From contig CAZGMQ010000005.1 of the NCBI GenBank assembly GCA_964526745.1, forward strand, positions 10,702 to 74,701: a stretch of 64,000 nucleotides of DNA. Direction: 5' to 3'. Under the pieces are notes generated by a model that did not search any database, was not told where the DNA came from, and was given only the letters and a program-made list of their open reading frames with translations. The position numbers were made by a program, and so were the translations under genes. This DNA is from an uncultured Verrucomicrobiota bacterium (lineage in GTDB: Bacteria > Verrucomicrobiota > Kiritimatiellia > CAIQIC01 > Lenti-01). Below, piece after piece: positions 17,369-64,000 of this stretch (positions are counted from its first letter, which is position 1; every line of letters starts with the position of its first letter).

Positions 17369-17670
17369 AATATATCCTACCGGTCCCCTGTTTGCTAGAA
17401 GTTAAATTAATAATAATGACAAGCCATTGCTCGGGCCAGAGCAGCTCAACAGAGATCAAGACCCGTCACTCGGGCAGACCATGATTCAGCGGTTGGCCAT
17501 GGCTCAGTTTGATTCACCCCTTCTCCATGGCCATATCGGGCTCAGAATCTGAACACTCCCCCTTATCGAACCCCCAACGAGAACCGGGTTCTCAATCCAA
17601 TTTTCCCCCGCGATTGACATTTATAGACAGGCGGAATACATTATTCTCATTCAACGAAAGGTCCACTGCC

Positions 17671-22241: not shown

Positions 22242-22357
22242 CCGGAATCTCTCCCACGCATCCACGATCTGCTCTACCGGGGGCGATGACCCCGGCACTC
22301 CGTTGCATTCACCATCACCGGTCTCATCGCGACCGGCTGAATTCAGTCAAACGCTGG

Positions 22358-27766: not shown

Positions 27767-28159
27767 GCTCCTGAGAGGGTGTTATGATGGGGACAGCAGT
27801 TCCAAAATCTATTAAAACGTTAAACCGTTTTAACCTAAAGGTCAAGCGTTTTATGTGGGGTTTTTGACCGGTCAAAGGCGTCGAAATCGAAACGTTTTAC
27901 CTCTTTCGATTGTTAGGAACCCATTATGACTGTAAATATTAGGAATCTCATGGAGTTAGAACAGACGTTTTTGTCCGCCGCCACCCCCATTTTTGTCACC
28001 CCGATTTCCGGGTGAGCGAAATCTTTTTTTTCTTTCTTCCAACTTTCTGACGAAGCTTGCACAACAAAACCGCCGGGCCGGAATCGGAACCGGTTTGGCC
28101 CCGTCGCGACATGATTTCTTCCCTTTCCTCTCTCTGCCTCCCCCGCTACACTTCCCCGC

Positions 28160-29350
28160 ATGACCAAACCCCTTCGTTTCTCTGAATTGCCCCGTCCCGA
28201 CTACAACGGCGGCAGCATCGTCAACCTCATGTCGTCTCTCATTCAGTCCCGTGGCGGACGATCCCCCCACCGCATGCTGCGCGGCCTGTCCGCCGCCCAA
28301 ATTAAGCCGTATAAAAAAATCGTCCTGCTACTGCTGGATGGACTCGGAAGCAACCAACTGCATGATTATGTTCTGGCCGGGAAGGGAAAGAAGTTTCTGG
28401 CCCTTCATCCCTTCCAGAAGATCACCACCGCCTGCCCCGCCACCACGGCGGCGGTCATCACCACGCTGGCCACCGGCGCCTCCCCGACCGAGCACGGCAT
28501 CCTCGGGTGGCATCTGCACCTGAACGACCTCGGCATGGATGGAACCATCCTGCCGTTCGTCACGCGAATGGGAACGCCCATTGCGCATCCCGACTTCGAC
28601 CTGAACCGGTATCTCGCCCTCCCGGCTCCCATCGCCAGTATGCACGGCCGACGCGTCCTGATTTCGCAGGGGCACATTCCCACCAGCCGCACGTCCATGG
28701 CCCAACCCTGGTGGACCGAACGACATTCCTTTGAGGAGCTGGACGGCATGGTCCGGCAACTGCGCACCTTCGCCCGCTCTCCAAAACGAGGCTATGCCTA
28801 CGCCTACTGGCCCACCTACGACTCCCTCTGCCATCAATACGGCCCCCAGGGACGCATCCCGGCGCAGCATCTCTCCGACATCGATACCTTCCTGGCCAAG
28901 GTACAGCGCGCGCTGGCCGGCACCGACACCCTTCTGCTGGTCACCGCCGACCACGGTCATATGCAAACCGACACCGCCATCAACCTCGCCGAGATTCCCG
29001 GCTTCTATGACACGCTGACCTCCCTGCCCTCCGGCGATTCCCGCATGGCCCAGTGCTTCGTTCGCCCCGCACGAGTGCGGGACTTTTTACAAATCACCCG
29101 CACCGCACCGTTTCTCGGAAACTGCGCCTGTGTCACCCACTCCGAAGTCCTCCGATCCGGCATTCTGGGCCCCGGAACCCCCCATCCAGCCCTCAAAAAC
29201 CGCCTGGGCGACTATGTCCTTTTTGCCGCGCCCGGAACCGCCTTCCTCTATCCCCCGGCCCTGTCCATCTATAAGAAGGCCATGCTCGGCAACCACGGCG
29301 GCCTCTCCAGCGATGAACTGGATGTCCCACTGTTTGTGATCCAGCCGTAG
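28160..29350 (+). CDS. Alkaline-phosphatase-superfamily metalloenzyme (type I phosphodiesterase/nucleotide pyrophosphatase-like)
   Basis: IVLLLLDGLGSN metal-site Asp, CPATTAAVITTLATG nucleophile loop, TADHGH metal-binding motif. Confidence 0.6.
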   Translation: MTKPLRFSELPRPDYNGGSIVNLMSSLIQSRGGRSPHRMLRGLSAAQIKPYKKIVLLLLDGLGSNQLHDYVLAGKGKKFLALHPFQKITTACPATTAAVITTLATGASPTEHGILGWHLHLNDLGMDGTILPFVTRMGTPIAHPDFDLNRYLALPAPIASMHGRRVLISQGHIPTSRTSMAQPWWTERHSFEELDGMVRQLRTFARSPKRGYAYAYWPTYDSLCHQYGPQGRIPAQHLSDIDTFLAKVQRALAGTDTLLLVTADHGHMQTDTAINLAEIPGFYDTLTSLPSGDSRMAQCFVRPARVRDFLQITRTAPFLGNCACVTHSEVLRSGILGPGTPHPALKNRLGDYVLFAAPGTAFLYPPALSIYKKAMLGNHGGLSSDELDVPLFVIQP

Positions 29351-48317: not shown

Positions 48318-50861
48318 ATGAATTTTACGTCCCACCTCTGCCTTTTCATCGCGTCCCTCTGCCTGCTCCCCATCCATCCGGCCTTCGCCTCGCAAACGCC
48401 CGAAGAGGAAACTCGGGTCTACTTCTCCGCGGCTCCGGCCCAGCCCGAGCGGGTGCGCGTCGGCCGGGATCAGGTGCTGTGGCGGCTCGAGAACGAATTT
48501 TTTGAGGAAGGCCCCTGCCTGGAGGGCGTCGAGGGGCCCATCCTGGTCGGCACGCCGACCGCGATTGAAAACGTCAACCGCATGCTTTCGTCCCCGGTCC
48601 AGACCTTCGGTACCGTACGCGGCTACCAGGAGCTGTTTCCTGAAGCCTGCGCGCCCTTGCCCGACCCATCGGCTTCCGCCATCAACATCACCAACGGCTA
48701 TCACGACGAAGCCGCCGTCGCCGCTCTGCTGACCCAGTTCGAAACGAATTTTCCATCGCTGGCCCAACGGATCCAGATCGGATTCACCCACTGGGGGCGG
48801 CCAATCTGGGCGCTAAAAATCTCTGACAACGTTGAAATGGAGGAACCCGAACCGCGCGTGGTGATCGATGCCAACATCCATGCCAACGAATATCCCGGCA
48901 CGGAAGTCGCGCTGGACATCATCTGGCAGCTACTGTACGGCTACACGAACAACACCACCTTTGCCTCGTGGGTCGATGGCATGGAAATCTATGTCATCCC
49001 CTGTCTCAATCCAGATGGACGCTATTATTGCGACACGGTCAATGAGTCTTGGCGCAAGAACGGGCGCGACAACAACCACAGCGGCACCATGACCTATGGA
49101 ACCGATGGCGTGGATCTCAACCGCAACTCTTCCTTTGATTGGGGCTATGACAACGTGGGCTCCAGCCCCGATGTCTATGACTATGACTATCGCGGACCCA
49201 GCCCCGCCTCCGAACCGGAAATCCAGGTCTACGACGCGTTGATCCAGCGTACGCGTCCGGCCTTCACCCTCAGCATCCACACCTTTTGGGGCCTGTTCTA
49301 CGGCCCCTATGGCAACTATGACATCGCCATGCCCGCGCCCGACCCCTTTCGCGCCATCGGAGATTTCATCGCGGAGGTCTGCACCAACGAGGACAACTCA
49401 GCCTACACCTTTGTGAGCGGCCCGGAATTCGGATACCCGGTCAACGGCGACCGTGCGGATTCCAACTACGGCCTGTACGGCATCCAGGCCTTTGGCGTTG
49501 AAGTGGGGGTCAATAAACACCAGCCTGATTATTCCACCGTGACCCTTCCCAAGCTTGTCCCCGGCGTCCGCCTGGGCTGGCAGCGCTTCCTTGCCGCCGC
49601 CCATACGAATTGGCCCAAGGTGCTGGGGTGGTCCCTGGATACCGCCACCGGCCAACCCGCGCCCGTTCGCATCCACTCACTCAACCTGACCAACCGACCC
49701 AACGATGAACACTGGACCAGTCGAGACGACGGGTATTTCGAATGCCCGCTTCCAACGGCGGGCACCTATCGCGTGGTATTCGCACCCATCGGCCAGGAAT
49801 CCCTGAGCACAACGCAAGCCCTCGTGGTAAGCAGCACCGCTCTGACCGCTGATCAGACTTTCGACGTAGCACCGGAACTAGGAATGCCCGGTGCGGGCAG
49901 AATCCAAAGCTGGACGAATCAACAGGAGGACGGGCTGGTGTTGCTGGAAGCGGCAGACAGCCCGACCGGTCCCTGGCTCCCCTTTCTGGCGCAATCCTGT
50001 ACAGGCCGAACCGGACAGGCTGAGATTCCAGATGGATTCACCTCCCGGGTGGTCCGGGTACGGACCTCACCCCAATATTTTCCGGCCAATACCAACATGG
50101 CGTTTATTCCCTCCGGCGCATTTCTCATGGGCAGCGATGGCGCCATCGATCTATCTGAGGCCCCCGCTGAGGCTATTCATCTGGAGGGCTTCGCCATCGA
50201 CTGCACAGAAGTGACCTTTGCTGAGTGGACACGTGTCCGCCTCTGGGCAATCGCAAACGGGTATTTCTTTGCACCGGGCCAGCCAGGAGTCGGCGGCGCC
50301 AGCACGACCAACCACCCTGTACTTGTGGTAACCTGGTACGATGCGATTAAATGGTGCAATGCCCGTTCGCAAAGCGAAGGATTGCTGCCCGCCTATTACT
50401 CAACCGCAGCGCAAACCAACATCTACAAGACCGGAATAACTAATCTCTCCGAGGCCTGTGTGAACTGGCAGGCCAACGGCTACCGTCTACCGACGGAGGC
50501 CGAATGGGAGAAGGCTGCCCGCGGCGGTTCCACCGGCATCGACTATCCCTGGGGTGATACCCTCGCCATGAGCAACGCGAACTACGCCGCCACAGGGACC
50601 ACCCTCACCGGCGCCTATCCCGCCAACGGCTATGGCCTGCACGATGCCGCCGGCAATGCCGCCGAGTGGTGCTGGGACTGGTCGGGGTCCTATACGAACC
50701 GGGCAAACGAAAATCCGACCGGTCCGGCCACCGGAACGGCCCGGATTGTCCGCGGCGGGTCCTGGAGCGATGCCGGCAGCGGCCTGCGCTGCGCGGCCCG
50801 GTCGTACCTCGCCCCGGCCTCCAGCAACACCGTCGTCGGACTGCGCTGCGTCCGGAAATAG
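48318..50861 (+). CDS. Secreted fusion protein: M14 zinc carboxypeptidase domain plus C-terminal FGE-sulfatase (formylglycine-generating-enzyme-like/SUMF1) domain
   Basis: Signal peptide. M14 zinc ligands in IDANIHANEYPGTE (HxxE). C-terminal GYRLPTEAEWEKAARGG...YPWGD...RIVRGGSW typical of FGE-sulfatase-domain proteins. Confidence 0.7.
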   Translation: MNFTSHLCLFIASLCLLPIHPAFASQTPEEETRVYFSAAPAQPERVRVGRDQVLWRLENEFFEEGPCLEGVEGPILVGTPTAIENVNRMLSSPVQTFGTVRGYQELFPEACAPLPDPSASAINITNGYHDEAAVAALLTQFETNFPSLAQRIQIGFTHWGRPIWALKISDNVEMEEPEPRVVIDANIHANEYPGTEVALDIIWQLLYGYTNNTTFASWVDGMEIYVIPCLNPDGRYYCDTVNESWRKNGRDNNHSGTMTYGTDGVDLNRNSSFDWGYDNVGSSPDVYDYDYRGPSPASEPEIQVYDALIQRTRPAFTLSIHTFWGLFYGPYGNYDIAMPAPDPFRAIGDFIAEVCTNEDNSAYTFVSGPEFGYPVNGDRADSNYGLYGIQAFGVEVGVNKHQPDYSTVTLPKLVPGVRLGWQRFLAAAHTNWPKVLGWSLDTATGQPAPVRIHSLNLTNRPNDEHWTSRDDGYFECPLPTAGTYRVVFAPIGQESLSTTQALVVSSTALTADQTFDVAPELGMPGAGRIQSWTNQQEDGLVLLEAADSPTGPWLPFLAQSCTGRTGQAEIPDGFTSRVVRVRTSPQYFPANTNMAFIPSGAFLMGSDGAIDLSEAPAEAIHLEGFAIDCTEVTFAEWTRVRLWAIANGYFFAPGQPGVGGASTTNHPVLVVTWYDAIKWCNARSQSEGLLPAYYSTAAQTNIYKTGITNLSEACVNWQANGYRLPTEAEWEKAARGGSTGIDYPWGDTLAMSNANYAATGTTLTGAYPANGYGLHDAAGNAAEWCWDWSGSYTNRANENPTGPATGTARIVRGGSWSDAGSGLRCAARSYLAPASSNTVVGLRCVRK

Positions 50862-50929: not shown

Positions 50930-53900
50930 CTATTCGACCGCGATACGGTAGAACCGCTTCACATCCACTGCCATATTGGTGTCTGACAAAGTGATGTCGC
51001 TCCCAGTGCCGTATACGTCATTGGTCACCAGGAACCAGTCCACGGGGACGACCGTGAGGTTTGTGCTGTAGTCCATCCGGTACTTCTGCCCCAGGATGGA
51101 GTAGAAGGTGGCAGAAGCAGGGACGCCGTTGGAGACCACAAGCGCTCCCACCTGCGGCAGCGGATAGACAAAGACCCCCACGGCCTCGCCGTCGCTCCCG
51201 TCTTTGTCGGCGGCGTAGAACACCACGCTGTATTCGCCCGTCGGCGTGGCGGGCGACCAGACGAATGTCCCCAACTCATTGGTCGGATAGAACACCGCAC
51301 CTGGCGGCATGTTGCTGACGGTCAACGTCACGGGGTCGCTCTCCGTCGGGGTGGCCGACACGTGGAACTGCAGGGGATGGCCCAAGAAGACCTCCTGGCC
51401 GCCGATCACGCCTAGCACCGGCGGCGTTCCCACTTCTTCGACTAAGCCGTATTCCACCTGGAAGTTGTCAATCAGCAGGCGCTCGCCGCCCGCAATCTTA
51501 TGGATTTCCAACCAAAGGGTACGATCGTCCACGGGTTGAAGATCAATGGGGCCGGAGTCGTACTCCTGATAGACCTTATCCGCCGCAAACCAATCCCCGT
51601 TGGTGGTGTACAGAGTAGTATAGTTGGTGCCGAAGTCCGTGCTGTACCTAATTTCAAAGTCCATGACCGGACTGTTATCCCAGCGGGCCAACTGGACCGT
51701 CAGTCGCGTGATGTTGGTTCTCACGCCGTATCGCAGATAGGTTTCTTCAACATTTTGCAGGCGCCAGGCATTGCTGGTGACGGAATACACGGTATCTCGC
51801 ACGGCAAGATTGGAAGCAAAGGCATCGGCCACTGGATTGGTGGAGTCGTTATCAAAAGTTTTGGCATTATAGCTGGTGCCAGTTCCCCCGCCCCACATGG
51901 AGGTGTCGTCAAAGGTCTCCAGATAAACCAGCGAAGGCGCATTGCTCACGCCAACGACAATATCGATGGTGTCCTCATCCGAGCCGTCCAGGTCCGAAGC
52001 GATAAAGGTCACGCTGTAAGTCCCGGTCGGCGATGCATTCGTCCAGAGAAATGTGCCCAGTTCGTTCGTCGGATAAAAGGCCGCCCCTTCAGGCAGGTTG
52101 GTTACCGTCAGTGTGACGGTATCGCCATCGGTCGACGTGGCCACCACCTCAAACTGAAGGGTGTTGCTGACGATGACCATGCGGTCACCGACCGGATTCA
52201 GGACGGGGGGGCTCGGCAGCGGCGGGCCGGAACAGTCACTCGTGTGTGTGCCCAGTCCATCAAATGTGTTCTGTGAAAAGCCGCTCCATTCCAGAGCCGG
52301 ATCATAGGCGTCCGAAGGGTCGAGATCGCCCTCCTCCACAGTCGACATCCGGCGCAGGGTGTGTTCAGCGGTAGAGACAATTCCGGTGCCCCATTCGGTC
52401 CCGGGATTGTAGCCGACCTGACCGATGGAATCCAGCACGGTGCCGCTGGCACCACCGCTTCGCAGCACAAAAGCATCATTGCCATCGTAGGTCATGCTGC
52501 CACTGGTCATGTCGGACACCGCCAGAACAGAAGCATCCGCCGAACCGTTCGCCAGCACAAAGACGGCCTGGGCGGGAATGGCACCGGTCAGACTTATGGT
52601 GTGGGTCGGTGAATTGGTCCCGTTGGAATAGATCTGCACCACGTACTGCCCGGCATCCAGATCCAGGGGCGCCAGGGATGGATTATAGATCTCCAGCGCC
52701 TTGTTATTCCCGGTGCCTTCCACGTACTCCGAAATCAGCACCGCGCAATTGGTATTTTCGTAGGGGGGTGTTTCCACGCGAATGGTGATGGAGGTGCTGG
52801 CGGTGCCGTCCTTGTCCTCCGCATAAAAGCTGACCGAATATATGCCGGTCGGGGTGGCGCTCTCCCAGATGAAGGTACCCAGGCCGTTGGTGGCCGGGAA
52901 GGTCGAACCGGAGGGCAGATTGCTCACCGTGAGCGTAATGGGATCACCATCGCTCGGGTCCGTGGCCGTGACCGCAAAACTCAGGAGATTGCTCTCCAGG
53001 ACGTCCTGATGATTCAGTGCATCGAACAGCGGCGGCTGATCGCCCTGACAGCATTCGACATCCACCGCCGTCACCGAAAGGGACCAGCCCGACAGGATGA
53101 TCCCTGCATATCCCGCCTCGACATCCTGCGCATAGAGGCTCCAGGTGCCGTTGGGTGTACCGCCATTGAAGTCCGACATCGCCGCGCCATAGGGAGGAGC
53201 CGGGGCCGGGGCATTCATTTCTTCGGCGGTGCCGGAAGGTTGGAAGGTGCCGGAAGTCAGCGCCGCACCGACTGGCAAGGCTGCGTCATCATCAAATGTC
53301 ATCGTCAGGTTGGTTACCGGAGTATCTCCCCCATCCGCTCCGATCAGCGAGACGGCATCGCCATCCGGACTGACGAGAATCACGTCGATGTCTTCAGGGT
53401 AGTCATGGGCAAACCCATGCAGGGTGGCCGTCACGTTGCGGATGCTTCCCGGCAGGTTGGAAATAGCGATGCTGGAAGGGAACGGATCCGCCGAAGCCCC
53501 ATCAGTCAGGGTAATCACGACGCTGTTGGTGAGCGTCAATGCGGTTTCCATTTCGGCCCCCAGCGTGAAGACAAACGGCACCGTCCCCAGTGCCAGACCA
53601 TTGTCATCCAGAGAGAGTGTAGCCGTCAGTTGGCCCCCGCATTGGCCTGTTGCGGCAAAAGAAAAAGAATTGGTGACGGGAGCTCCCCCCGCCAGAAGAG
53701 CGCCATAGCTCATCGGCCCGTCCGGCCCGGTCACTCCGCCGGTCGGCTCCAGCGTAGCGATGACATTGGTCGTATCCGCCGTACCGATATTCTGCAGTAC
53801 AAAATCCACTGTTACAGTTTCATTGGGGTCGATCGCCCCGTTCCCGACCGCACCACAGCTTTCTGCCGTGACAACGGCCTCAACAGCATCAATGTATGCG

Positions 53901-54007
53901 GTTTGGGCAAGCGTTTCCGGCAAACTGCCACCCAGCAGAATAGTAACCAAACCCCAGAATTGAAGTTTCTTAATCACTTCGTAACATTCTAATCGACCCT
54001 CCCCCAT
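50930..54007 (-). CDS. Large secreted surface protein with lamin-tail domain (LTD) and three putative-Ig/cadherin-like repeats
   Basis: Threefold repeat ...DP.TLTVSN(L/M)P.G..F.PTN.LGTF.W..A.PTG.YSV.F.A.D.DG.... LTD-like CAVLISEYVEGTGNNKALEIYNP. 1025 aa. Confidence 0.55.
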   Translation of the reverse strand: MGEGRLECYEVIKKLQFWGLVTILLGGSLPETLAQTAYIDAVEAVVTAESCGAVGNGAIDPNETVTVDFVLQNIGTADTTNVIATLEPTGGVTGPDGPMSYGALLAGGAPVTNSFSFAATGQCGGQLTATLSLDDNGLALGTVPFVFTLGAEMETALTLTNSVVITLTDGASADPFPSSIAISNLPGSIRNVTATLHGFAHDYPEDIDVILVSPDGDAVSLIGADGGDTPVTNLTMTFDDDAALPVGAALTSGTFQPSGTAEEMNAPAPAPPYGAAMSDFNGGTPNGTWSLYAQDVEAGYAGIILSGWSLSVTAVDVECCQGDQPPLFDALNHQDVLESNLLSFAVTATDPSDGDPITLTVSNLPSGSTFPATNGLGTFIWESATPTGIYSVSFYAEDKDGTASTSITIRVETPPYENTNCAVLISEYVEGTGNNKALEIYNPSLAPLDLDAGQYVVQIYSNGTNSPTHTISLTGAIPAQAVFVLANGSADASVLAVSDMTSGSMTYDGNDAFVLRSGGASGTVLDSIGQVGYNPGTEWGTGIVSTAEHTLRRMSTVEEGDLDPSDAYDPALEWSGFSQNTFDGLGTHTSDCSGPPLPSPPVLNPVGDRMVIVSNTLQFEVVATSTDGDTVTLTVTNLPEGAAFYPTNELGTFLWTNASPTGTYSVTFIASDLDGSDEDTIDIVVGVSNAPSLVYLETFDDTSMWGGGTGTSYNAKTFDNDSTNPVADAFASNLAVRDTVYSVTSNAWRLQNVEETYLRYGVRTNITRLTVQLARWDNSPVMDFEIRYSTDFGTNYTTLYTTNGDWFAADKVYQEYDSGPIDLQPVDDRTLWLEIHKIAGGERLLIDNFQVEYGLVEEVGTPPVLGVIGGQEVFLGHPLQFHVSATPTESDPVTLTVSNMPPGAVFYPTNELGTFVWSPATPTGEYSVVFYAADKDGSDGEAVGVFVYPLPQVGALVVSNGVPASATFYSILGQKYRMDYSTNLTVVPVDWFLVTNDVYGTGSDITLSDTNMAVDVKRFYRIAVE

Positions 54008-54329: not shown

Positions 54330-55247
54330 ATGATGACCATAGATAAGAGCCTATTGAAGTATCATCCGGACGTGCTGGATGCGTTGAAACATCACCGTCC
54401 GATTGTCGCATTAGAGAGCACATTGATTACACATGGACTGCCCTACCCTGTGAATCTGGAAGTGGCGAGCGGCATGGAGCAGGCGGTTCGGGACGCCGGG
54501 GCGGTCCCGGCCACCATTGCGGTGCTGAAGGGACAGATTACCGTAGGGCTAACCGCTGATGAGTTGGCTTATCTGGCTCAAGCCCAGGATGTTCGAAAAT
54601 GCAGCCGGCGTGACTTTCCGATTGTGATGGCCCAAAAAGGCGATGGCGCCACCACCGTCGCGGGAACGATGATTGTCGCCCACATGGCCGGGATCAAAGT
54701 GTTTGCCACAGGCGGAATTGGCGGCGTGCATCGGGGCCACCCCTTTGATGTCAGCGCAGATTTGATGGAATTGTCTCAAACCCCGGTGACCGTGGTTTGT
54801 GCCGGAGCCAAAGCCATTTTGGATCTACCCTTGACGATGGAGGTGCTGGAGACGCATGGCGTGCCCGTCATCGGACATGGCTGTTCAAATTTACCCGCCT
54901 TCTACACCCGGGACTCAGGCCTGCCGCTGGATATCCGCTGTGACACGACGGATGAAATAGCCGATATCATCCGCGCACGCGAAGCACTCGGGTTGCAAAC
55001 CGGCACGCTGGTTGCCACCCCGATCCCGGAGAAAGATGAACTTCCCGCTGCAGTGGCGGAAAAAGCCATTGCACAAGCGCTGAAAGAAGCCGAAGAGCAA
55101 GGGGTGCGAGGCAAAAAAGTCACGCCTTTCCTGTTAGCCCGCGTCAGTGAATTGACCCACAAAGAAAGCCGAACCGCCAACGTGGTGCTGCTGGAAAACA
55201 ACGCGCGAGTGGCCGCCGGCATTGCCTGTGCCCTGGCGGCTTCGTAA
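54330..55247 (+). CDS. psuG: Pseudouridine-5'-phosphate glycosidase
   Basis: IVALESTLITHGLPYP N-terminal motif, plus a conserved KGDGATTVAGTMIVAHMAGIKVFATGGIGGVHRG core. Confidence 0.8.
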   Translation: MMTIDKSLLKYHPDVLDALKHHRPIVALESTLITHGLPYPVNLEVASGMEQAVRDAGAVPATIAVLKGQITVGLTADELAYLAQAQDVRKCSRRDFPIVMAQKGDGATTVAGTMIVAHMAGIKVFATGGIGGVHRGHPFDVSADLMELSQTPVTVVCAGAKAILDLPLTMEVLETHGVPVIGHGCSNLPAFYTRDSGLPLDIRCDTTDEIADIIRAREALGLQTGTLVATPIPEKDELPAAVAEKAIAQALKEAEEQGVRGKKVTPFLLARVSELTHKESRTANVVLLENNARVAAGIACALAAS

Positions 55248-55349: not shown

Positions 55350-58300
55350 CTACGGTGCGTAGGCCGGGATCTTGATTCGGTAATTCCGAACGGTGGGCCA
55401 CGCATTCGTGTCAACCCATGTCATGGGATTATTGGTAGCGACGATGGGCTCCAATGATTTCCATATGTTTGTGCTCATAAGAGACCCATCAAGACCCTCG
55501 ATGGTGTAGTCCCGGCCCACGATGGCCTTGAAGGTCAGGCGAAGGGTATTGCTGGATACCACGAACTGGTTTTCCCACCCGATATAGCTGCCGGAGGAGT
55601 TGGGATCCGTACTGGCCACCCATTCGTTGAAGTTCGGGAAGCCGTCGCCGTCCCAATCGCCATCGGGGGCGTTGGTGGTCGTGCCAATCTTAAGCAGTTC
55701 CCAATCGTCGGGCATCCCGTCGCCGTCTGCATCCCACGGCACGGTGATGGTGACGGCGGCATTGGTCGTGTCGGTGCCGTCGTCAGCGGTGAAGACCGTA
55801 TTGGTATAAACCTGATCGTTCGTGCGCCCACCTTGACTGATCGCGGTCACGTGCCACGAGAATATGCCCGTGTTGACGTCGAACGCAGCCAGTCTGGATC
55901 CGCCGACCGGCAGGTTGGTGACGGACAGCGTCGTGGAGGGGCTGTCGTAGTCGATGGCCGCGACCGTGAAGATGGAAGTTGCCCCCACCGGCATAAGGTA
56001 CGGGCCTTCGGGATTGAACTCCAACGCGGGTGGCTCATTGGCCGCCAGGACGGACGACGCCAGTTCGATGGTAAATGCCAAACTGTCGGTGCCGACCACC
56101 TCTACTTGGCGGGTCTGGGCCTGATTGCGCATGTTGACCGTGTTCCAGGTATTAGACATATCCGTAGCCGCTGTATTGATACTGCCGGTCGCCACTACCA
56201 GCTGAAGCGTACTGGCCAGACTTTCTGCCGGACGAATGGTGGAAAGTGTCAGCGTTGAAGTCCCTCCCGTCTCTTCCGAGAGGTTTCGCTGGCCGGTACG
56301 CAGCAATGCGTCCAGATCGGGCGAAAGGCCGTTACGGACATAGAGTGTCTTGCCGGGCATGGCATAGGAAACCGCGAAAACGTTGGTGGAAGCGCTCGCC
56401 AGCGAGATGGTCTTGCCCACACCCGCATTGGAGAACGTGACGGCATTGGCCGTAGAGGAGAAGGCATAGAGATCATTCACGCGGTTGGTTGAACCGTCCC
56501 ACCAATCCTTGAGAGCCGAGGTGCGGGTGGCCCCCACCCCTTCACCGCTCACGTTGGCGGTGCCTTCGTCTTCGGTGCCGGCGTCAGGCATGGAGACGAA
56601 ATTACCGATCATCTGAACGACGTTGGTGCCCGTCTTGAGCCACGCGCCGACCATGCGGCCGCCGCTGCGTTCAAACAGCGCCATCACCGCATTGTTGCGC
56701 AGGATGGTTTCGTTCTCGCCGTCGAGATCCACATCGGCGCTCACGACCTCGGTGGAGGAAAGCGTGCGCCCGGCCCAATCGTCCACGGCAGCATAGAGGG
56801 CGGCCATGCGGGTCTGGCCCTGCGCTTTCCAAGCGAAACCCTGCAAGCCCTGCCAGCCAGCCGCCGGAGACACGTAGTCGCCGAAGCTCCAGCGCGTCAA
56901 ACTGTTGTTGGTTTCGTTGTGGAACGCGGTCTCAAAAGTCGAGGCAAACAAGGTCTGCTGCGCCAGGCGTTTGACGTCGGCGTTTACAATGCCCTGAACG
57001 GCTTTCCACGCATTGGAGAGAATACCGTTGGTCATGGAGCCATAGACGGTGCCCGACGGCAGGTTGCTACCGATGCGCACCTCGAAGAGTTTCGGCGCGA
57101 GGCCCTCATGGCGGGCAGAACCGTAGTACCAGTTGTCGTAATTCGTGTTGCAGGCGTGGTGCACCCAGTCCTGGGACTGCATGCCATCTGCCGCGGTCAA
57201 ATCACGGCTGACAGTATCTCCATCGAGGACTTCGTCGAGGGCAATGACCTGGATCCAGGGATGGTTGGCCATCCATCGCAGGTTGGCGTCGTAGGCATCG
57301 GCATTGGCATTCGCGTTCAGATCCTCCCACATGTAGAAAATGGTGGAAATCTGGTCGCCCCCAGAGCGCGCGCGGCGATTGAAGAGCTGGCGCAAATCGG
57401 TCGGCAAGCCCCCGTCGGTATTCACATATCGGTAGTTGTTGGCGGCGGTGGCGATGATGAACGCATCGATGGATGGCCAGTCGCCGCTGGGCATTTCTAA
57501 ATAGAACCGGTTGATCTTATAGGAATTGTCGCCCAGCGCCTCTTCGCGTCCGTACCACTCCAGCAGGTGGGGCGTCTGGTCGAGAATGGTGGCCCTATAG
57601 CCCAGGTTGGTCTTGACCTGCTTGAGCGTTTCCACATCCGCCGCGCGCTCGGGAATCCAAAACACGTTGGTGGAAACCACGCCGCTCGTGACCGAGCCGC
57701 CATAGATTTCATTCAAGGCTTCCGTCGCCAACTCCACGTTGGCGAGGTTATAAGCCGCATCAAAATACGGGAGGATGTGGTCGGAGAAGGTACTGCCCAG
57801 CAAACGGAATGTGCCCGCGGCGACACCGGCGCGAATTTGATCGTTGAGCCCCGGCCCGGAATACCACGTATTCGACGTGCCCACCTTCGCCCACTCCAGT
57901 GCCATGGCCAGCGTAGGCGTGATATGCAAATTCAGCGCGGCATTCGTATAAATATTGTGAATTTTAACCGGCCGCTGATAGCCCGCGCCGGAACCATTGT
58001 CCACGATGTTCTGGATGGTCACCCCCGGCTCAACAGCCTGATTGCCATGCGCCAGCATCGCCACCTTGGCGTTCTGGCCCCTGTTGTTCCACACATTGCC
58101 GCCAGCCGTGCGCCCAACGCAGGTCGAATAGTAGCCGTTGGCCGCAATATAGTCGTAGTCCTGATAGTAGTCAGAGCACAGCCAGTCGTCGCCAATGGTA
58201 TCGGTGAAATCGTTCAGGCCGCCCTTATCGCCAGAACCGCCATCGTCGGCCGTGAAATCGCTCGTCGTGTACACCTGGAACTTCAGGTCTTCCGGATCCC

Positions 58301-61300
58301 CGCCCCACCCCGCGGCCACCAAGGCTGCGCGGTCAATGCTCCAGGCTACGGCATCCAGTTCGGAATTGAAATAGGCGCCATAAAAACCGCCCTCAACCGC
58401 CACCACGCCAGCCGCCGCCAAATCCCCGCCGATGTCCGTCGTGTTGTTGCCGCTATCTTGGTCGACATAGACCACACCATTGGCACTGTCGTAAACGCCG
58501 ATGCAGGCGTTCCACTGCATATCGCTTCCGGCATTGACCTGGTCGGGCAGATTGACTTCGCCGCCCTCCCCATAGGTACCAAAGTTGATGGCGACGTAAA
58601 CGTTCAGGGCGCTTTCCTCGGCGTTGGCCGCGAGATCATCGAAGTCCACCCGGAAGTAGAGCTTGCCGTCGATTGCACCGCCGTCGTGGAAGTAGAACGC
58701 CACCATGTCGCGAGAGCTGTCGAACCCGTCGCCCCGACGATAGATATCAGAGGAGTTGCCGCCCTGGTTGTAGTTGTCCAGTGCGATCAGGTCATCCAGA
58801 GTCCAATCCATGAACTCGCGGTAATAAGTCGTGTCGTTGACCACACCTATAACCGGGCCCTGGCCAATAGTAATCGCGCCCTCGCCGCCCGGATCCACAA
58901 TGGAATCCACCTCGATCGGATTGGTTCCATTCTGGTATTCCAGCAGGTTGACGTAGGGTTGCTCGACGAGAAATTCGTCCAGATAGGTGTCGTTGTCGGG
59001 GTTACCATCGGCGCCATTGTTCGGATCCCCTGCCAGGCCGGTCCGCATGCTGGTGATGCCATCGTCGAGCGGATCCAGGCCATAGCGTACTTCCCATCCG
59101 TCAGGAAGGCCGTCGCCGTCGGTGTCCGAATTCAGCGGATCGGTTTCCGTCCACGTTTCACCGGTATCCCAAACCCGGTTGGTGTTGAGGTCGCCCGCGA
59201 TGCGACCATCGAAGTTCTTGTCCTCGCCGTAGCCGTCGCTGAGGCCGTCGTCATCGCTGTCGGAAATACCCGGAGAGGTCTCCAGCCACGTTTCGCCACT
59301 GTTGATAATACCGTCGGGCCAGTTGCGCTCAAGCCAGGGATCGTAAGATGTGGGCAGAAGTTCGCCATCGCCATCGACCCACCCGTTGCGATTGGCATCC
59401 TCGATGCCGTCGGGCAGACCGTCATAGTCGCTGTCGGACTTCGACGGGTCGGTGACGGTGCCCTGCACAAGCTTGGTGCGGCTCGCGCCGGTTCCGGCGC
59501 CATCAATGCCCTTGACGCCATCGCTGCCCACCAAGGTGTTGTAAAACGGCGGATCGAGATCGGGGAGAAAGTTTTTAAAGCCGTCGCCATCCGTATCGGT
59601 ATCGGTATCGGTCCCGGCCGCAGGCAGGCGATAGCCCAGTTCCAGCCCGTCCGGCAGGCCGTCGCCATCGGTGTCGGGGCTGTTCTCCATAGATTTGCCG
59701 CGCGAGAAGTAGTTGAACACCTCGGTTTGCGACCAGTATTCCTTCGCGCTTCCCGGCAGGGGGCACGCCGATATCTCGTTGGTATTCAGGATACCGTCGT
59801 CATCCCAGTCTGCATCGGTCGCGTTGGTCGTGGAAACCAGTTCCCGGAATTGGACCGTGGCGTTGCGAGTGGCGGAATTGGAACCCGAGCTCAGTTCGGT
59901 GCCGTTGGTATTGGCCCAAACCGTGGCCGTGAAGCGGTAGGCACCGGCATTGGTGACGGTCCATGTATAGTTCCATGTCAGGCTGTCGCCATTGGTGACC
60001 ACGCTGCCCAGAACCACCGCGCCGACATAATCCGTCGGACTATTGAACTGGACGGCCAGATTCGTAGCATTCGCATCGGTCAGCACCACAATAGGCGTTT
60101 CCCGCAAAGCCGCGTTGGTTGCCAGCACGGAAGCCGGCACATCCTCCATCCGGATGATATATTTGGCGCCGTCGCTGTCCGTCTCTGGCGGCGTAGTAAT
60201 GATGAGGGTCGGCAGCAGCGGTCCGCGATGCTGGACCAGCCGCACGGCAGCCTTGTTGAAATCGCCATAGCCATTGCTGTTAGTGAATTCGACCCGCACA
60301 CCATACAACCAGCCGTCCTGGCCGTTGTAGACGTTCGGCATCGCAAATTCCAAGGTGTTGAGATCACCATCCCAGGAGTGAGAGAAAGCCAAATCGTCGG
60401 CGCTGATCAAATCCCCGCGGTTGGTCGAACCGTTCGCAGTAGAATTCACGTACACCCGGGTCTGCTCATAGATTTGGTCGGCCGAAAGGCCTTCCGCCAT
60501 GCTGGCGGTGTAATGGACCCGGAATCTCCAGCCGGCCTCGACCATTGTGCCGTCGGCCTCGGGCCAATCGAAAAAGAACTCCTCTGCCGGCCCCCGGGTG
60601 TTCAAAGTGCGTTCCAGTTCGGTGTAGTGACCAACGGCGGCGTTGTCATTCGTCGGGTTGACCGTGGACCAGTTATTGCTGGCGGTGCTCGACCATTCAC
60701 GCAAGCGGACGCGAATAGTAGCGGAATTGCTCGCAGGGATACGCGCGTAGTTGAAACGCCAGATCTGGGGATAGGCCGTGTCTTCCGCCATATCCTCTGT
60801 CCATGCGCCCACCGTCGAAGCCTGCGCCCAAACCACCTGGCCCGATACCATGCCATTGCCCGCGCCGTCGTTGTCGGGATTGATATCCGTAATGTGATAC
60901 CATACCTCGCGTGCAGTCGGATCGGTGCGGACAATAAACCCGTACTCGCTGCCGTAATAGGTCTCGCCGTCCGCCGCCGGATATTGGATATAGCCCTGTG
61001 GGGTTTCCGTATCCAGATAGAACGTCTGGCGGAATGTATTGAAGACCGGCGCACCGCCGGGGCGTTCCAGGAACGCCTTGGCTGTCAGCAGGTGGAACCC
61101 GTCCGCCAATCCGTTGGTGGTCCAGCTATTATAGTCGTTATGCTTGTGGTACGACTTCGTCTTCAGATTCTGGGCATCTGTGTTCCACTCGCCCATCAGG
61201 ATGCTCTTCATATAGATGGCCGCGCTGTTGCTGGGCCAAACCACCTGCCACCCATTGCCGTCATAGCCTTGCTGGCGGGCGGATCCGATCTTGTAGCGGA

Positions 61301-63803
61301 AGACTGTGCCAGCGGACAGGGCCGGAACCTTAATTTCCCACCAATCGTTGCTGTCGGCCGTTTGTCCCGACCACGCAGCCTCCACCACCCGCGTCGATTG
61401 ATTCCCGCCCGCGCCGCCCGCGCCCTCGGGCCAGGCCGTGCCGTTCGTGGTGTAGTAGATGTGGACCCGGTTCCCGCTCACCTTGGGCGTCTTGACATTA
61501 ATATAGAGCGTCTCGTCGGCTGCGTTGGTCAGCATCGGCCAGAACTGCGCGCATCCCACGCAGTTCGTTCGGTCCTGAGCACCGTTCGGATCGTGCCAGA
61601 TCCACGACACCGTGTCTGCCAAGTCCCAGTCGTTGCTGGCCGTGGACAGGTTGGTTGAAAACCCGGCGGTTCCGATCACCGCCTCATAGGTCTCCGCTCC
61701 CGCCGAACCGATTTGATTGCGGACGGAATCCGCCGCCGCGAACTTCTCCGGCCAGATGCGCTGGATGAAATTAACGCCTTCATAGCCGAGATACATGTCG
61801 TCGGTCAGGGCCGGGGGGTTGTCGCGGGGATCACCACCGGAATGGTTCACGCCGTTGAGGTCCATGCCGCCATCCAGCCGCATCAGTACGTTGTCGGCGG
61901 AGCCGTCCACACGCGCATCAAACACGACATTGGTGCCCTGGGTGATGCGAGGAATAGCGATGGAATAGGTGTAATCCGAGGTATTGGTGTCGGCAAGGTT
62001 GTACGGGTTGAAGGCTGCGTCGCCGTCGGGCCCGTCTTCTCGGTTTACCAGGATGGTGTCCGCCAGTTGCCCGTTGTCATAAATCGAGATCACATCCCCG
62101 GACCACAGGCTGCTCGAATCGGGATTCTTGTACCCCCAGACCGAATAACTGTTGGGAGGTTGGTTCACGTTGTACAGGTCGCTGGCATAAACGTAGTCGG
62201 CCGCCGGGCCGCTGTCCGTGAAATAGCACTGGTAAGAGCGAACGTAGTTATACAGGTAAGCATCGTCTGAAAAGGTGCCCTGGGTCGGAAGGGTGCACCA
62301 GTCTTCCCACTTCGAATTCAGGATCACAAGCGCGGTATTCCACGGGGAAGAGCCCCCGCGTTCCCACGCAATGACCGATCCATCCCAATGGGTCCCCATT
62401 CCGACGTGATCGTAGCGCGCCATATTTTCGTGGATCTTCAGTAGTTCGGGAATTTGGGTCTGTCCCCACTGACCCAGGAAAGCGGTGTTTGCCCAGCGCG
62501 GGAAAGCGCCGCCGCTGCCGGAGAGCGTTTCCGCATGGCTGTTCCCGTCGGTATAAAGCAGGCCCAGTCCCTGCCGCAGGAGATAATAGGCGTGCTGCAG
62601 CTCTTTGCGGTCCACGTAGTCGTTGTCGTGGCTCTGCGCGTGCATGACGCCCACTCCGGAAGAAAATCCGCCGGCACCCGCAGCGTCATAGCCCCACAAA
62701 TCGCCCGCGCTGAACCGCCAGTTGAGCTCGGTCCGCAGATCGTTGTCCACCAGACGCATCCCCGCCGCAACATAGCCGTCATATCCGGGTGGCTCTCCCA
62801 GATGTTCCCCAAACAGAATCGCATCATCCCGCGGAATCTCGGTGTTGAAATTGCTGTCGCGGAGGTTGTTGGTGTCGCTGTAGCCGTGCGTTTTGTCGAA
62901 CTGCCACTGGATTTGCCCCAGGTAGCCGGCATCGCTGTCATCGTCGTTGTAGGCCCCGAAGAAATAGTCCGGCACGTGCTTGACGGCATCCAGACGGAAC
63001 CCATCGGCATGGGTGGTGTCCATCATCCAGCGCGCATTCCGGCACAGGTAGGCCCCCACGTCTTCCTTATAGAAGTCCGGATTGGCTGTAATCACCGCCT
63101 CGGTAATCGACGTGCTGTTGAACCCCTTGTGTCCCAGCGTGGGATGCCAATCGTAGAATTCAGGGTTATTGGGATGCCGCACGATGGAAGGCTTGTCGTG
63201 CCAGTCGCCCTCCGAGTCTCCGAAATTCTGATTCGGCGTCTCGTGGGCGATGTCCAGCAAGTCCGACAGCCCCAGATGCATCACCTGCCAGGCATCGTTC
63301 CAATCGCGGGTGTTATCCCACTTACGGCAGAATCCGTCGGAGGTGGTGCGCAGGTGGAAATCTTCCGCCACCATGCCGGGGAAGACATCCGTCGGGGTGG
63401 TTTCGTCATACAGCGGGACATCGTAGGCGCGGTGGTTCATGATGTTATCAAAATAGACCCGAATACCGAAGCGGTGGCACAGTTCCACCAAGTTGTGTAA
63501 ATCCGCCTTGGTTCCATAGCGCGTGGAAATCGTCCCGCGCTGGTCGATATTCCCTAAGTCGAATGGATCGAACAAGTCATAACCGACCGAATATCCCCCA
63601 TTGGCTTTCGCCGGCGGCGGCAGCCAGAGTGAGGAATACCCTGCCTCGGCCAGCTCCGGCACCTTGTCGGCGATCTCATTCCAGCTTGCGTTGAAATACT
63701 GCAGCATGGCCTCGCCGAGGGCTGCTGCGGGAAACAGGCCCAGAAGGCAGACACCCAACAATCCCCGCTTTGCCCACTGCCGAGAAAAATAAACCAATTT
63801 CAT
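55350..63803 (-). CDS. Giant (2818 aa) secreted GH13 alpha-amylase-family protein with thrombospondin-type-3 Ca-binding repeat arrays
   Basis: Signal peptide (start at MKLVYFSRQWAKRGLLGVCLLGLFPAAALGEA). GH13 regions YFDNIMNHRA, GFRLDAVKHVPDYFF, FGEHLGE, HAQSHDNDY. More than 10 Asp-rich repeats (DTDGDGLPDGWE, DSDDDGLSDGYGEDKNFDG, DADGDGMPDDWE, DWDGDGFPNFNE). Confidence 0.75.
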   Translation of the reverse strand: MKLVYFSRQWAKRGLLGVCLLGLFPAAALGEAMLQYFNASWNEIADKVPELAEAGYSSLWLPPPAKANGGYSVGYDLFDPFDLGNIDQRGTISTRYGTKADLHNLVELCHRFGIRVYFDNIMNHRAYDVPLYDETTPTDVFPGMVAEDFHLRTTSDGFCRKWDNTRDWNDAWQVMHLGLSDLLDIAHETPNQNFGDSEGDWHDKPSIVRHPNNPEFYDWHPTLGHKGFNSTSITEAVITANPDFYKEDVGAYLCRNARWMMDTTHADGFRLDAVKHVPDYFFGAYNDDDSDAGYLGQIQWQFDKTHGYSDTNNLRDSNFNTEIPRDDAILFGEHLGEPPGYDGYVAAGMRLVDNDLRTELNWRFSAGDLWGYDAAGAGGFSSGVGVMHAQSHDNDYVDRKELQHAYYLLRQGLGLLYTDGNSHAETLSGSGGAFPRWANTAFLGQWGQTQIPELLKIHENMARYDHVGMGTHWDGSVIAWERGGSSPWNTALVILNSKWEDWCTLPTQGTFSDDAYLYNYVRSYQCYFTDSGPAADYVYASDLYNVNQPPNSYSVWGYKNPDSSSLWSGDVISIYDNGQLADTILVNREDGPDGDAAFNPYNLADTNTSDYTYSIAIPRITQGTNVVFDARVDGSADNVLMRLDGGMDLNGVNHSGGDPRDNPPALTDDMYLGYEGVNFIQRIWPEKFAAADSVRNQIGSAGAETYEAVIGTAGFSTNLSTASNDWDLADTVSWIWHDPNGAQDRTNCVGCAQFWPMLTNAADETLYINVKTPKVSGNRVHIYYTTNGTAWPEGAGGAGGNQSTRVVEAAWSGQTADSNDWWEIKVPALSAGTVFRYKIGSARQQGYDGNGWQVVWPSNSAAIYMKSILMGEWNTDAQNLKTKSYHKHNDYNSWTTNGLADGFHLLTAKAFLERPGGAPVFNTFRQTFYLDTETPQGYIQYPAADGETYYGSEYGFIVRTDPTAREVWYHITDINPDNDGAGNGMVSGQVVWAQASTVGAWTEDMAEDTAYPQIWRFNYARIPASNSATIRVRLREWSSTASNNWSTVNPTNDNAAVGHYTELERTLNTRGPAEEFFFDWPEADGTMVEAGWRFRVHYTASMAEGLSADQIYEQTRVYVNSTANGSTNRGDLISADDLAFSHSWDGDLNTLEFAMPNVYNGQDGWLYGVRVEFTNSNGYGDFNKAAVRLVQHRGPLLPTLIITTPPETDSDGAKYIIRMEDVPASVLATNAALRETPIVVLTDANATNLAVQFNSPTDYVGAVVLGSVVTNGDSLTWNYTWTVTNAGAYRFTATVWANTNGTELSSGSNSATRNATVQFRELVSTTNATDADWDDDGILNTNEISACPLPGSAKEYWSQTEVFNYFSRGKSMENSPDTDGDGLPDGLELGYRLPAAGTDTDTDTDGDGFKNFLPDLDPPFYNTLVGSDGVKGIDGAGTGASRTKLVQGTVTDPSKSDSDYDGLPDGIEDANRNGWVDGDGELLPTSYDPWLERNWPDGIINSGETWLETSPGISDSDDDGLSDGYGEDKNFDGRIAGDLNTNRVWDTGETWTETDPLNSDTDGDGLPDGWEVRYGLDPLDDGITSMRTGLAGDPNNGADGNPDNDTYLDEFLVEQPYVNLLEYQNGTNPIEVDSIVDPGGEGAITIGQGPVIGVVNDTTYYREFMDWTLDDLIALDNYNQGGNSSDIYRRGDGFDSSRDMVAFYFHDGGAIDGKLYFRVDFDDLAANAEESALNVYVAINFGTYGEGGEVNLPDQVNAGSDMQWNACIGVYDSANGVVYVDQDSGNNTTDIGGDLAAAGVVAVEGGFYGAYFNSELDAVAWSIDRAALVAAGWGGDPEDLKFQVYTTSDFTADDGGSGDKGGLNDFTDTIGDDWLCSDYYQDYDYIAANGYYSTCVGRTAGGNVWNNRGQNAKVAMLAHGNQAVEPGVTIQNIVDNGSGAGYQRPVKIHNIYTNAALNLHITPTLAMALEWAKVGTSNTWYSGPGLNDQIRAGVAAGTFRLLGSTFSDHILPYFDAAYNLANVELATEALNEIYGGSVTSGVVSTNVFWIPERAADVETLKQVKTNLGYRATILDQTPHLLEWYGREEALGDNSYKINRFYLEMPSGDWPSIDAFIIATAANNYRYVNTDGGLPTDLRQLFNRRARSGGDQISTIFYMWEDLNANANADAYDANLRWMANHPWIQVIALDEVLDGDTVSRDLTAADGMQSQDWVHHACNTNYDNWYYGSARHEGLAPKLFEVRIGSNLPSGTVYGSMTNGILSNAWKAVQGIVNADVKRLAQQTLFASTFETAFHNETNNSLTRWSFGDYVSPAAGWQGLQGFAWKAQGQTRMAALYAAVDDWAGRTLSSTEVVSADVDLDGENETILRNNAVMALFERSGGRMVGAWLKTGTNVVQMIGNFVSMPDAGTEDEGTANVSGEGVGATRTSALKDWWDGSTNRVNDLYAFSSTANAVTFSNAGVGKTISLASASTNVFAVSYAMPGKTLYVRNGLSPDLDALLRTGQRNLSEETGGTSTLTLSTIRPAESLASTLQLVVATGSINTAATDMSNTWNTVNMRNQAQTRQVEVVGTDSLAFTIELASSVLAANEPPALEFNPEGPYLMPVGATSIFTVAAIDYDSPSTTLSVTNLPVGGSRLAAFDVNTGIFSWHVTAISQGGRTNDQVYTNTVFTADDGTDTTNAAVTITVPWDADGDGMPDDWELLKIGTTTNAPDGDWDGDGFPNFNEWVASTDPNSSGSYIGWENQFVVSSNTLRLTFKAIVGRDYTIEGLDGSLMSTNIWKSLEPIVATNNPMTWVDTNAWPTVRNYRIKIPAYAP

Positions 63804-64000
63804 CCCTATACTCCTCACCTTGACCTCTCCCCTGATTGGAACGCCAACCCAAGCTGGAGAAGTACGGCTGATTGCTATTCTGTTCCAAATATACGCCCTC
63901 GCGCCCGAGACCTCAATGCAAAAACGCTTCACTTGAGATATTTCTCTGGTTTCCTCCTGCTTCGATGTTCTGAACTGGCGTGTTGCCTCAAATAAGCATG

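Follow-up and report, generated by a model that had tools for sequence, protein, structure and literature searches.

An uncultured verrucomicrobial bacterium of the class Kiritimatiellia encodes a giant protein that joins an alpha-amylase-type domain of glycoside hydrolase family 13 (GH13) to a large unit resembling glycoside hydrolase family 57 (GH57). Its gene lies in a 64,000-nucleotide stretch of contig CAZGMQ010000005.1, referred to below as the window. The product is probably a ~300-kDa, Sec-exported enzyme with two catalytic domains that acts on alpha-glucan (starch, glycogen, or maltodextrin) outside the cytoplasm of a Kiritimatiellia-type anaerobe of the Planctomycetes-Verrucomicrobia-Chlamydiae (PVC) superphylum. 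The components of the protein are of known kinds, namely GH13, GH57-type, bacterial thrombospondin type 3 repeats (TSP3_bac), and immunoglobulin-like (Ig-like) domains. It is the architecture that is new. From the N-terminus, a signal-peptide-like segment is followed by the GH13 head, an Ig-like stalk, an array of TSP3 repeats, the GH57-like unit, a further Ig-like domain, and a C-terminal module.

The gene is a complete coding sequence on the minus strand (55350..63803; 2817 amino acids [aa] plus a TAG stop), as judged from the list of open reading frames (ORFs) and from homologues of the same length. All coordinates given for parts of the protein are on this strand. The frame is open from a GTG (55350..63932); the ATG start at 63803 is preceded by GAGGAG with a 7-nucleotide spacer, and the stop codon occupies 55350-55352. 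The initial annotation, made from the letters of the sequence, was right that the ORF is real, but its length of 2818 aa counts the stop codon. The frame is intact, and independent assemblies supply homologues of 2815 to 2816 aa that match the query along its entire length (100%) at ~80% identity. Because these same-length homologues align over the full query, the ORF is neither interrupted, nor chimeric, nor a chance frame in G+C-rich DNA. With the signal peptide, the C-terminal Ig domain, and the tail set aside, mean identity across the family is at least 51% in all regions, and thus nearly the whole protein is under constraint.

The first 32 residues (63708..63803), MKLVYFSRQWAKRGLLGVCLLGLFPAAALG/EA, fit a Sec signal peptide by inspection, with a basic n-region, a hydrophobic core, and small residues at -3 and -1. 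The sequence A-x-G-E-A-M-L-Q-Y-F-N at the signal junction is kept in the consensus of a 33-sequence family alignment. These features agree with the earlier description of the giant as a secreted protein. A lipoprotein reading of LLGVC in this segment was rejected, since Val is an unusual residue for -1 and the family consensus does not retain the lipobox Cys.

The GH13 head comprises an alpha-amylase-type catalytic domain with its C-terminal beta domain (aa 33 to 560; 62124..63707), which was recognized with Pfam, NCBIfam, Protein Data Bank (PDB), and hhalign comparisons. Pfam model PF00128 matches the head well above its cutoff (51.5 versus 22 bits), and the NCBIfam PRK09441 alpha-amylase models match at an E value of 1e-36. 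The NCBIfam alpha-amylase equivalog models score 92 to 126 bits, against cutoffs of 382 to 804. Because these scores are far under the cutoffs, the head is not an equivalog of any named amylase. The best PDB sequence matches are the alpha-amylases 3bc9 (H. orenii AmyB) and 1mwo (Pyrococcus woesei), at E values of 1e-24 to 1e-25. The strongest match has an E value of 6.5e-25, and Bacillus-type amylases are also among the best solved relatives. These matches reach at most from about aa 26 to aa 311, and the remainder of the GH13 domain had no significant match in the PDB.

Complete GH13 catalytic regions had been reported at the N-terminus in the initial annotation, and regions I to IV are indeed present. 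Their motifs are DNIMNH (aa 119 to 124), GFRLDAVKH (aa 268 to 276), LFGEHLG (aa 330 to 336), and HAQSHD (aa 388 to 393). They pair column for column with the GH13 domain of an 1802-aa protein encoded elsewhere in the window (hhalign probability, 97.6%; 400 columns), an alignment that also places a long insertion in the domain-B region of the head. The predicted nucleophile D272 (62988..62990) stands opposite GFRVDAIKH of this neighbor, the predicted acid/base E333 (62805..62807) opposite LFGEYFS, and the predicted transition-state stabilizer D393 (62625..62627) opposite FIDNHD. This triad, together with H392, is invariant in the 33-sequence alignment, in which identities range from 46 to 81%, and 24% of the columns in the head region are invariant. 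On sequence grounds, the head is predicted to be a catalytically complete alpha-amylase-type domain.

The GH57-like unit spans ~940 aa (aa ~1638 to 2580), about a third of the protein. In the initial annotation it fell within long regions with no assignable domain, a description that does not hold for this unit. Structure prediction of the unassigned regions yielded an all-beta stalk and a GH57-like fold for aa 1625 to 2600. When the protein was scanned as 600-aa pieces, the Pfam GH57 model PF03065 was found at aa ~1957 to 2090, with 22.5 to 23.4 bits against a cutoff of 21.2. The same model matches 13 of 13 trimmed family members (best E value, 1e-10), and a precomputed PF03065 match is attached to most database homologues. 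The AlphaFold model of aa 1625 to 2600 (predicted template modeling score, 0.82) runs from a beta-sandwich through a seven-strand barrel and helices to a second beta-sandwich. With Foldseek, the closest structure to this model is the Thermococcus litoralis GH57 4-alpha-glucanotransferase, 1k1x (E value, 3e-20), followed by GH38 mannosidases (E value, ~1e-13) and then by other GH57 structures (7e1y, 3p0b, and 1ufa; E value, ~1e-8). An hhalign comparison of the unit with canonical GH57 gave an E value of 2.7e-5 over 375 columns. None of the GH38 Pfam models matched the unit.

Three parts of the unit can be delimited. The N-terminal beta-sandwich, which starts with AITIGQGP, is drawn from the model (aa 1638 to 1890; 58134..58892; predicted local distance difference test [pLDDT] score, ~90). 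The GH57-like (beta/alpha)7 barrel and the helical region (aa 1895 to 2345; 56769..58121) are identified with PF03065, Foldseek, and hhalign. The C-terminal beta-sandwich (aa 2346 to 2585; 56049..56768), again drawn from the model, starts with a DVDLDGENE motif and is conserved together with the rest of the unit in stand-alone homologues.

GH57 is defined by a (beta/alpha)7 barrel, a Glu nucleophile on beta-4, an Asp donor on beta-7, and five conserved sequence regions (CSRs), of which CSR-3 has Trp first and Glu at the fourth position (PMC6037648). The predicted nucleophile of the unit is E2052 in FWIPER (57648..57650), located just after the predicted beta-4. In three hhalign comparisons it stands opposite the Glu that serves as nucleophile in canonical GH57 (two sequences, FWPPEC and FPPEN). 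The 33-sequence alignment keeps the W-x-P-E-R motif, with no variation at W2049, E2052, or R2053, and a strict-pattern search recovered FWxPER in 101 of 121 homologues. The candidate acid/base region is M2158-W2159-E2160-D2161 (57321..57332), at the end of the predicted beta-7 (STIFYM). W2159 and E2160 are invariant, and position 2161 is Asp or Glu in 85 of the 121 homologues, that is, in all of those in which the motif was recognized; position 2158 is Met, Asn, or Ala. A by-eye pairing of E2160 with the proton-donor Asp was not reproduced by hhalign.

The other conserved regions are retained to different degrees. CSR-3 is kept and CSR-1 is partly kept (HGNQ versus HQP), and CSR-4 and CSR-5, whose placement is uncertain, appear to deviate from canonical GH57. 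CSR-5 was placed near FETAFHNE...RW by hhalign. An alternative assignment of CSR-5 to NYDNWYYG (aa 2221 to 2228) was dropped because the broader profile alignment places it ~70 residues further on; NYDNWYxG is a family-specific conserved motif. Invariant residues H1919, H1960, and D2075 lie at, or a few residues past, the C-terminal ends of predicted barrel strands. By its predicted fold, its HMM (hidden Markov model) match, and its putative nucleophile, the unit is of GH57 type, yet very divergent.

The unit also exists apart from the GH13 head. An exhaustive phmmer search with the unit against 1.84 billion cluster representatives recovered 306 relatives at an E value of <=1e-3 and did not reach canonical GH57. 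Mapping of the hits indicated that aa ~1638 to 2580 travel together. Relatives were found in stand-alone and mosaic settings (P0162, P0170, P0202, P0209, P0259, and P0198). The stand-alone proteins are 930 to 1020 aa long and carry the same motifs, with ITIGxGP directly after the signal peptide, as at the start of the unit here; one example is from a metagenome-assembled genome (MAG) of Sumerlaeia. Among the mosaic relatives, one carries an N-terminal Ig domain of the alpha-glucan water dikinase type, one combines a canonical GH57 domain with this unit, and one, 3459 aa long, clusters with sequences from Caldiserica MAGs. Because the unit occurs both alone and in other mosaics, the window protein, judged from these relatives, joins an amylase to a secreted enzyme that existed beforehand.

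Between the GH13 head and the GH57-like unit lie the stalk and the main TSP3 array. The stalk (aa 561 to 1300; 59904..62123) consists of about six to seven Ig-like beta-sandwich domains in an AlphaFold model that is all-beta (pLDDT, 84.7). It had no significant Pfam or NCBIfam match, and Foldseek returned generic multi-Ig matches only (complement MG domains, titin, and PrgB). A carbohydrate-binding module (CBM)-like module had been proposed within the stalk at aa ~760 to 860 (61224-61526). This segment is a conserved small beta-sandwich in the AlphaFold model, and the CBM designation did not hold: CBM_56 scores a subthreshold 14.6 bits (cutoff, 27), CHB_HEX_C_1 scores 12.5 bits (cutoff, 22), and the NCBIfam models gave nothing.

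The main array of TSP3 repeats (DxDxDGxxDxxE; aa 1301 to 1625; 58929..59903) was delimited with PF18884, NCBIfam, and a motif list. PF18884, the model of bacterial TSP3, scores 30.1 bits (cutoff, 25) in three stretches within aa 1290 to 1625, and the TSP3 region of the NCBIfam CglD model matches the array at an E value of 5e-13. Six strict DxDxDGxxDxxE motifs are present, four in aa 1332 to 1571 and two in aa 2691 to 2727. The Asp repeats of the initial annotation are genuine bacterial TSP3. The eukaryotic TSP_3 model PF02412, which the initial annotation had named, did not match (9.5 bits; cutoff, 25). Homologues show no variation at the Asp and Gly positions, which make up most of the 21% of array columns that are invariant; because of this invariance, the repeats are not mere low complexity. 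They are putatively of the calcium-binding type, and the calcium-dependent attachment or rigid spacing that had been suggested for the arrays is plausible.

Downstream of the GH57-like unit, an Ig-like domain (aa 2586 to 2688; 55740..56048) has a weak resemblance to He_PIG that is not significant (PF05345, 10 bits). No other part of the protein varies as much (mean identity to the query, 33%), and some homologues carry PF05345. The C-terminal module (aa 2689 to 2817; 55353..55739), recognized with an HMM of such tails and from the shared tails themselves, contains a pair of TSP3-like motifs, then EWVASTDP, and a beta-rich domain of ~80 aa that ends in RNYRIKIPAYAP. In consensus form, the module comprises TSP3-like motifs, E[WYF]xAGT[DN]P, and a beta-domain of ~80 aa whose last residues are [FY]YR[ILV].

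The same module ends many large proteins (~300 to >2500 aa) in loci from Verrucomicrobiota, Kiritimatiellota, and Lentisphaerae (L016 to L071), mostly no more than 50 residues from the stop. At least two other big secreted proteins in the window have the module or its ending. The HMM built from module tails matches the C-terminus of the neighboring GH57 protein (18474-18893, minus strand) at an E value of 5e-6, and a lamin-tail domain (LTD)/Big_9 protein ends in KRFYRIAVE (50933-51292, minus strand). This HMM also matches an internal site of the GH13 neighbor, at aa ~1190 to 1269 of the protein encoded at 22358-27766 (minus strand). No Pfam or NCBIfam model covers the beta-domain of the module. 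The NCBIfam model Amuc_1099_fam gave a weak match on the TSP3 part (27 bits; cutoff, 50), and a word-index homologue search with the C-terminal 133 aa returned six short fragments only. The C-terminal module is a candidate sorting or anchoring module, and may be a better candidate for attachment than the TSP3 arrays.

The giant belongs to a large family. A homologue search returned 796 proteins at an E value of <=1e-10. The best 120 of these are 2107 to 3388 aa long, all but two being at least 2650 aa, and have 42 to 81% identity, so that the search for orthologous giants called for earlier has yielded more than 100 full-length homologues. The best 120 come only from MAGs or metagenomes, with the labels Kiritimatiellae, Verrucomicrobia, Opitutae, Lentisphaerae, and Spartobacteria. 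Homologue names are all "hypothetical" or automatic, and automatic JGI annotation lists the three Pfam domains on one homologue. The same architecture recurs in independent ENA, JGI, NCBI, and Logan assemblies. The species-representative genomes with full-length or near-full-length homologues are all MAGs (L001, L003, L004, and L007). Locus L081 has, 2.4 kb downstream of a close homologue, another GH13+GH57 giant (20854-28448), and the MAGs that contain L002 and L003 also hold copies with 37% identity (L010 and L012). Because there are several giant GH13+GH57 paralogues per genome, the family has expanded within genomes.

We infer secretion, calcium binding, surface attachment, and the activity and substrate of both catalytic units from these features. 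The protein would be exported by the Sec pathway, and the C-terminal module would either retain it on the cell surface or export it there. The Ig-like stalk and a TSP3 segment stiffened by Ca2+ could hold the GH13 head distal from the cell, where the head would cleave internal alpha-1,4 bonds in an endo fashion. The GH57-like unit would probably supply a second alpha-glucan activity, either hydrolytic or transferring. The link of the unit to alpha-glucan is drawn because relatives pair it with a water dikinase-type Ig domain or with canonical GH57, and because there are two other giant glucan enzymes in the window.

Several observations weigh against a surface-acting enzyme with two active catalytic domains. 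No member of the family is experimentally characterized. No recognized starch-binding CBM was detected in the giant protein with Pfam, and no maltodextrin transport or regulatory genes adjoin its gene. The outer-membrane step and surface anchoring are speculative, since a signal peptide alone reaches only the periplasm of a diderm. PF03065 passes its cutoff narrowly (23.0 versus 21.2 bits), and the identity to 1k1x in the Foldseek alignment is 12%. Searches of PDB sequences with the GH57-like region, by phmmer or with a trimmed 13-sequence profile, found no relative, and the GH57 relationship is visible only via Pfam and the predicted fold. The usual Glu of CSR-2 is absent (FRLLGS). Lastly, hhalign, with low local confidence, puts M2158 at the canonical Asp donor column and E2160 two residues further on.

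The last points could be taken to mean that the GH13 head is the sole enzyme and that the GH57-like unit is a catalytically dead module with a glucan-binding or structural role. A Met, Asn, or Ala at the donor column, the missing CSR-2 Glu, the borderline Pfam score, and the lack of a PDB sequence match for the unit would all fit this explanation, and GH57 "like" groups without one or both catalytic residues have been described (PMC6037648). However, FWxPER is invariant in the 33 aligned sequences as well as widespread in the pattern search, and an invariant Trp-Glu followed by Asp or Glu stands at the end of the predicted beta-7, the expected acid/base site. Furthermore, the alignment at M2158 could be shifted by one or two residues, and a stand-alone secreted unit with the same motifs is hard to explain as a mere spacer. 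We consider a dead unit unlikely. It is also conceivable that the unit is active and is not a degradative starch hydrolase, being instead a transglycosylase that remodels alpha-glucan or an enzyme for alpha-galactosides or alpha-mannosides. Its best structural match is a 4-alpha-glucanotransferase, GH38 alpha-mannosidases are next, and an identity of 12% is too low to read specificity; alpha-galactosidases and branching enzymes are found within GH57 (PMC6037648). Yet the unit is fused to an alpha-amylase, its relatives pair it with the alpha-glucan water dikinase-type Ig domain or canonical GH57, and it has no GH38 Pfam match. In the GH57 nucleophile motif WLTERV, Glu is followed by Arg, as in the unit, and the GH38 nucleophile is Asp. 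A role of the unit other than starch degradation appears rather improbable.

Other explanations concern location and the gene itself. The protein could be periplasmic, processing imported maltodextrins or a periplasmic glucan with no surface display, as the Sec-type signal is the only recognizable one and no PEP-CTERM-type helix, lipobox, or match to a type IX secretion system model was found in the giant protein. However, a size of ~300 kDa, a long Ig-like stalk, and TSP3 repeats are typical of surface or extracellular proteins, and the C-terminal module is common to other very large adhesin-like PVC proteins, including the LTD/Big_9 and GH57 proteins in the window. A periplasmic location is thus quite unlikely. 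It is extremely improbable that the ORF reflects misassembly, a pseudogene, or a chance frame. Long spurious ORFs do arise in G+C-rich DNA, as exemplified by a 1363-aa antisense ORF (57567-61658, plus strand) wholly within the giant gene, which is most likely a shadow ORF of long G+C-rich coding DNA and not a gene. Against this stand the more than 100 full-length homologues that align end to end in independent assemblies, the significant HMM matches and confident structure models, and synteny with a downstream Indigoidine_A gene kept at 51% identity.

The preferred reading, a secreted two-catalytic-domain alpha-glucan enzyme, can be extended into a more specific proposal, which is tentative and, on balance, doubtful as a whole: that the ~940-aa unit is an uncharacterized glycoside hydrolase lineage at the edge of GH57 and that, at the same time, the C-terminal module is an undescribed PVC sorting or anchoring signal. 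The unit would then be a new GH57 subfamily or a sister family, distinguished by an N-terminal beta-sandwich of its own and perhaps by a novel specificity. Its catalytic acid would be altered, with an invariant Trp-Glu and then Asp or Glu behind beta-7 in place of the canonical Asp. It would be a stand-alone secreted enzyme in MAGs of other lineages (for example, Sumerlaeia and Caldiserica) that was fused to GH13 in Kiritimatiellia. The TSP3 motifs and the beta-domain ending in YR[IV]xxP would serve an undescribed route of surface display or secretion that is widespread in PVC bacteria.

Comparison with known enzymes sets both catalytic units in context. The head shares its family, regions I to IV, and the Asp/Glu/Asp triad with GH13 alpha-amylases (1bli, from B. 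licheniformis; 1mwo; and 3bc9), and the N-terminal beta1-beta3 region of these enzymes is strongly similar to it (E values, 1e-24 to 1e-25). In contrast to these amylases of ~435 to 600 aa, the domain here heads a 2817-aa protein and has a long domain-B insertion. The unit has the predicted barrel, the helices, the C-terminal beta-sandwich, and the W-x-x-E after beta-4 in common with the T. litoralis GH57 enzyme (1k1x). It differs from known GH57 enzymes (1k1x; the amylopullulanase 7e1y; and the branching enzymes 3p0b and 1ufa) in an extra N-terminal beta-sandwich of ~250 aa, an identity of ~12%, a deviation in CSR-2, and apparent deviations in CSR-4 and CSR-5. Known GH57 enzymes are mostly derived from thermophiles, and the glucanotransferases and branching enzymes are intracellular.

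Amylase-pullulanases are likewise large secreted polypeptides with two alpha-glucan-active domains that could act jointly on a branched substrate. There, GH13 supplies both domains, and recognized starch-binding CBMs (CBM41, CBM48, and CBM20) are present as well, whereas in the giant protein the second domain is GH57-like, no recognized starch-binding CBM was detected, and the linkers are Ig-like and TSP3. Among gut Firmicutes and Bacteroidetes, large surface-held amylases, which noncatalytic modules keep in place so that products are freed near the cell, are known from Eubacterium rectale (Amy13K), Ruminococcus bromii (the amylosome), and Bacteroides (SusG). Their means of anchoring are different (sortase, dockerin-cohesin, and lipoprotein), and they have a single catalytic domain each. 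The proposed working of the giant protein at the surface would be similar, but there is no sequence relationship beyond GH13. The same DxDxDGxxDxxE repeat is found in the Myxococcus proteins CglD and MtsD. The match to these NCBIfam models is limited to the repeats and far below the equivalog cutoffs, and the two proteins, which serve in adhesion and motility, lack glycosidase domains. A literature search, with most subscription journals outside its coverage, found no report of a GH13-GH57 fusion, of this GH57-like unit, or of the C-terminal module.

Elsewhere in the window, two further giant glucan enzymes bear out the initial annotation's count of three in 64 kb: a GH57 protein of 1275 aa (18471-22298) and the 1802-aa GH13 protein, which also has a CBM20 (22358-27766, minus strand). 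The possibility that the 2817-aa protein is a recent duplicate of these neighbors was rejected; BLASTP gave a weak GH13-GH13 match with 25% identity. A protein with helix-turn-helix and PTS-EIIA-2 domains (17509-18354, plus strand) and a response-regulator-GGDEF protein (16445-17368, minus strand) adjoin the GH57/GH13 pair and are possible regulators of it.

Downstream of the giant gene and convergent with it is an Indigoidine_A-like gene of the pseudouridine-5'-phosphate glycosidase family (54330-55247, plus strand). A scan of the 3' intergenic region for terminators revealed nothing convincing. An Indigoidine_A-like gene, with 51% protein identity, is also downstream in homologous loci (L082 to L084, ~19800-20950), where a small transposase-like gene lies between it and the giant gene. 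This linkage suggests a stable chromosomal position. An operon or polysaccharide utilization locus was considered and rejected, as the neighbors are housekeeping or otherwise unrelated genes (Indigoidine_A-like, LTD/Big_9, M14+FGE, HypD, and iPGM), and the same lack of relation applies to the genes on either side of the other two glucan enzymes. The LTD/Big_9 protein (1025 aa; 50930-54007, minus strand) has a P-domain, Big_9, a lamin-tail domain, and a C-terminal ending of the FYRI type, and is probably another large surface protein beside the giant gene. An 847-aa protein (48318-50861, plus strand) has the unusual pairing of an M14 zinc carboxypeptidase domain (E value, 2e-50) with an FGE-sulfatase domain that is sulfatase-modifying-factor-like (E value, 1e-45).

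Alpha-amylases fall mainly into two families, GH13 and GH57, and here a GH13 domain and a GH57-like unit occur in one polypeptide. Basic concepts are unchanged by this finding, and its interest lies mainly in CAZy classification and in PVC cell-surface biology. As a compact candidate for a new GH57 subfamily, one whose catalytic acid would be atypical, the GH57-like unit is relevant to CAZy classification and to the discovery of enzymes. The shared C-terminal module may indicate an undescribed protein-sorting system in the PVC superphylum. That more than 100 proteins of ~300 kDa are conserved, and that individual genomes encode several paralogues, suggests a use of surface enzymes of unusual size against starch or glycogen by uncultured Kiritimatiellia of digesters and guts.

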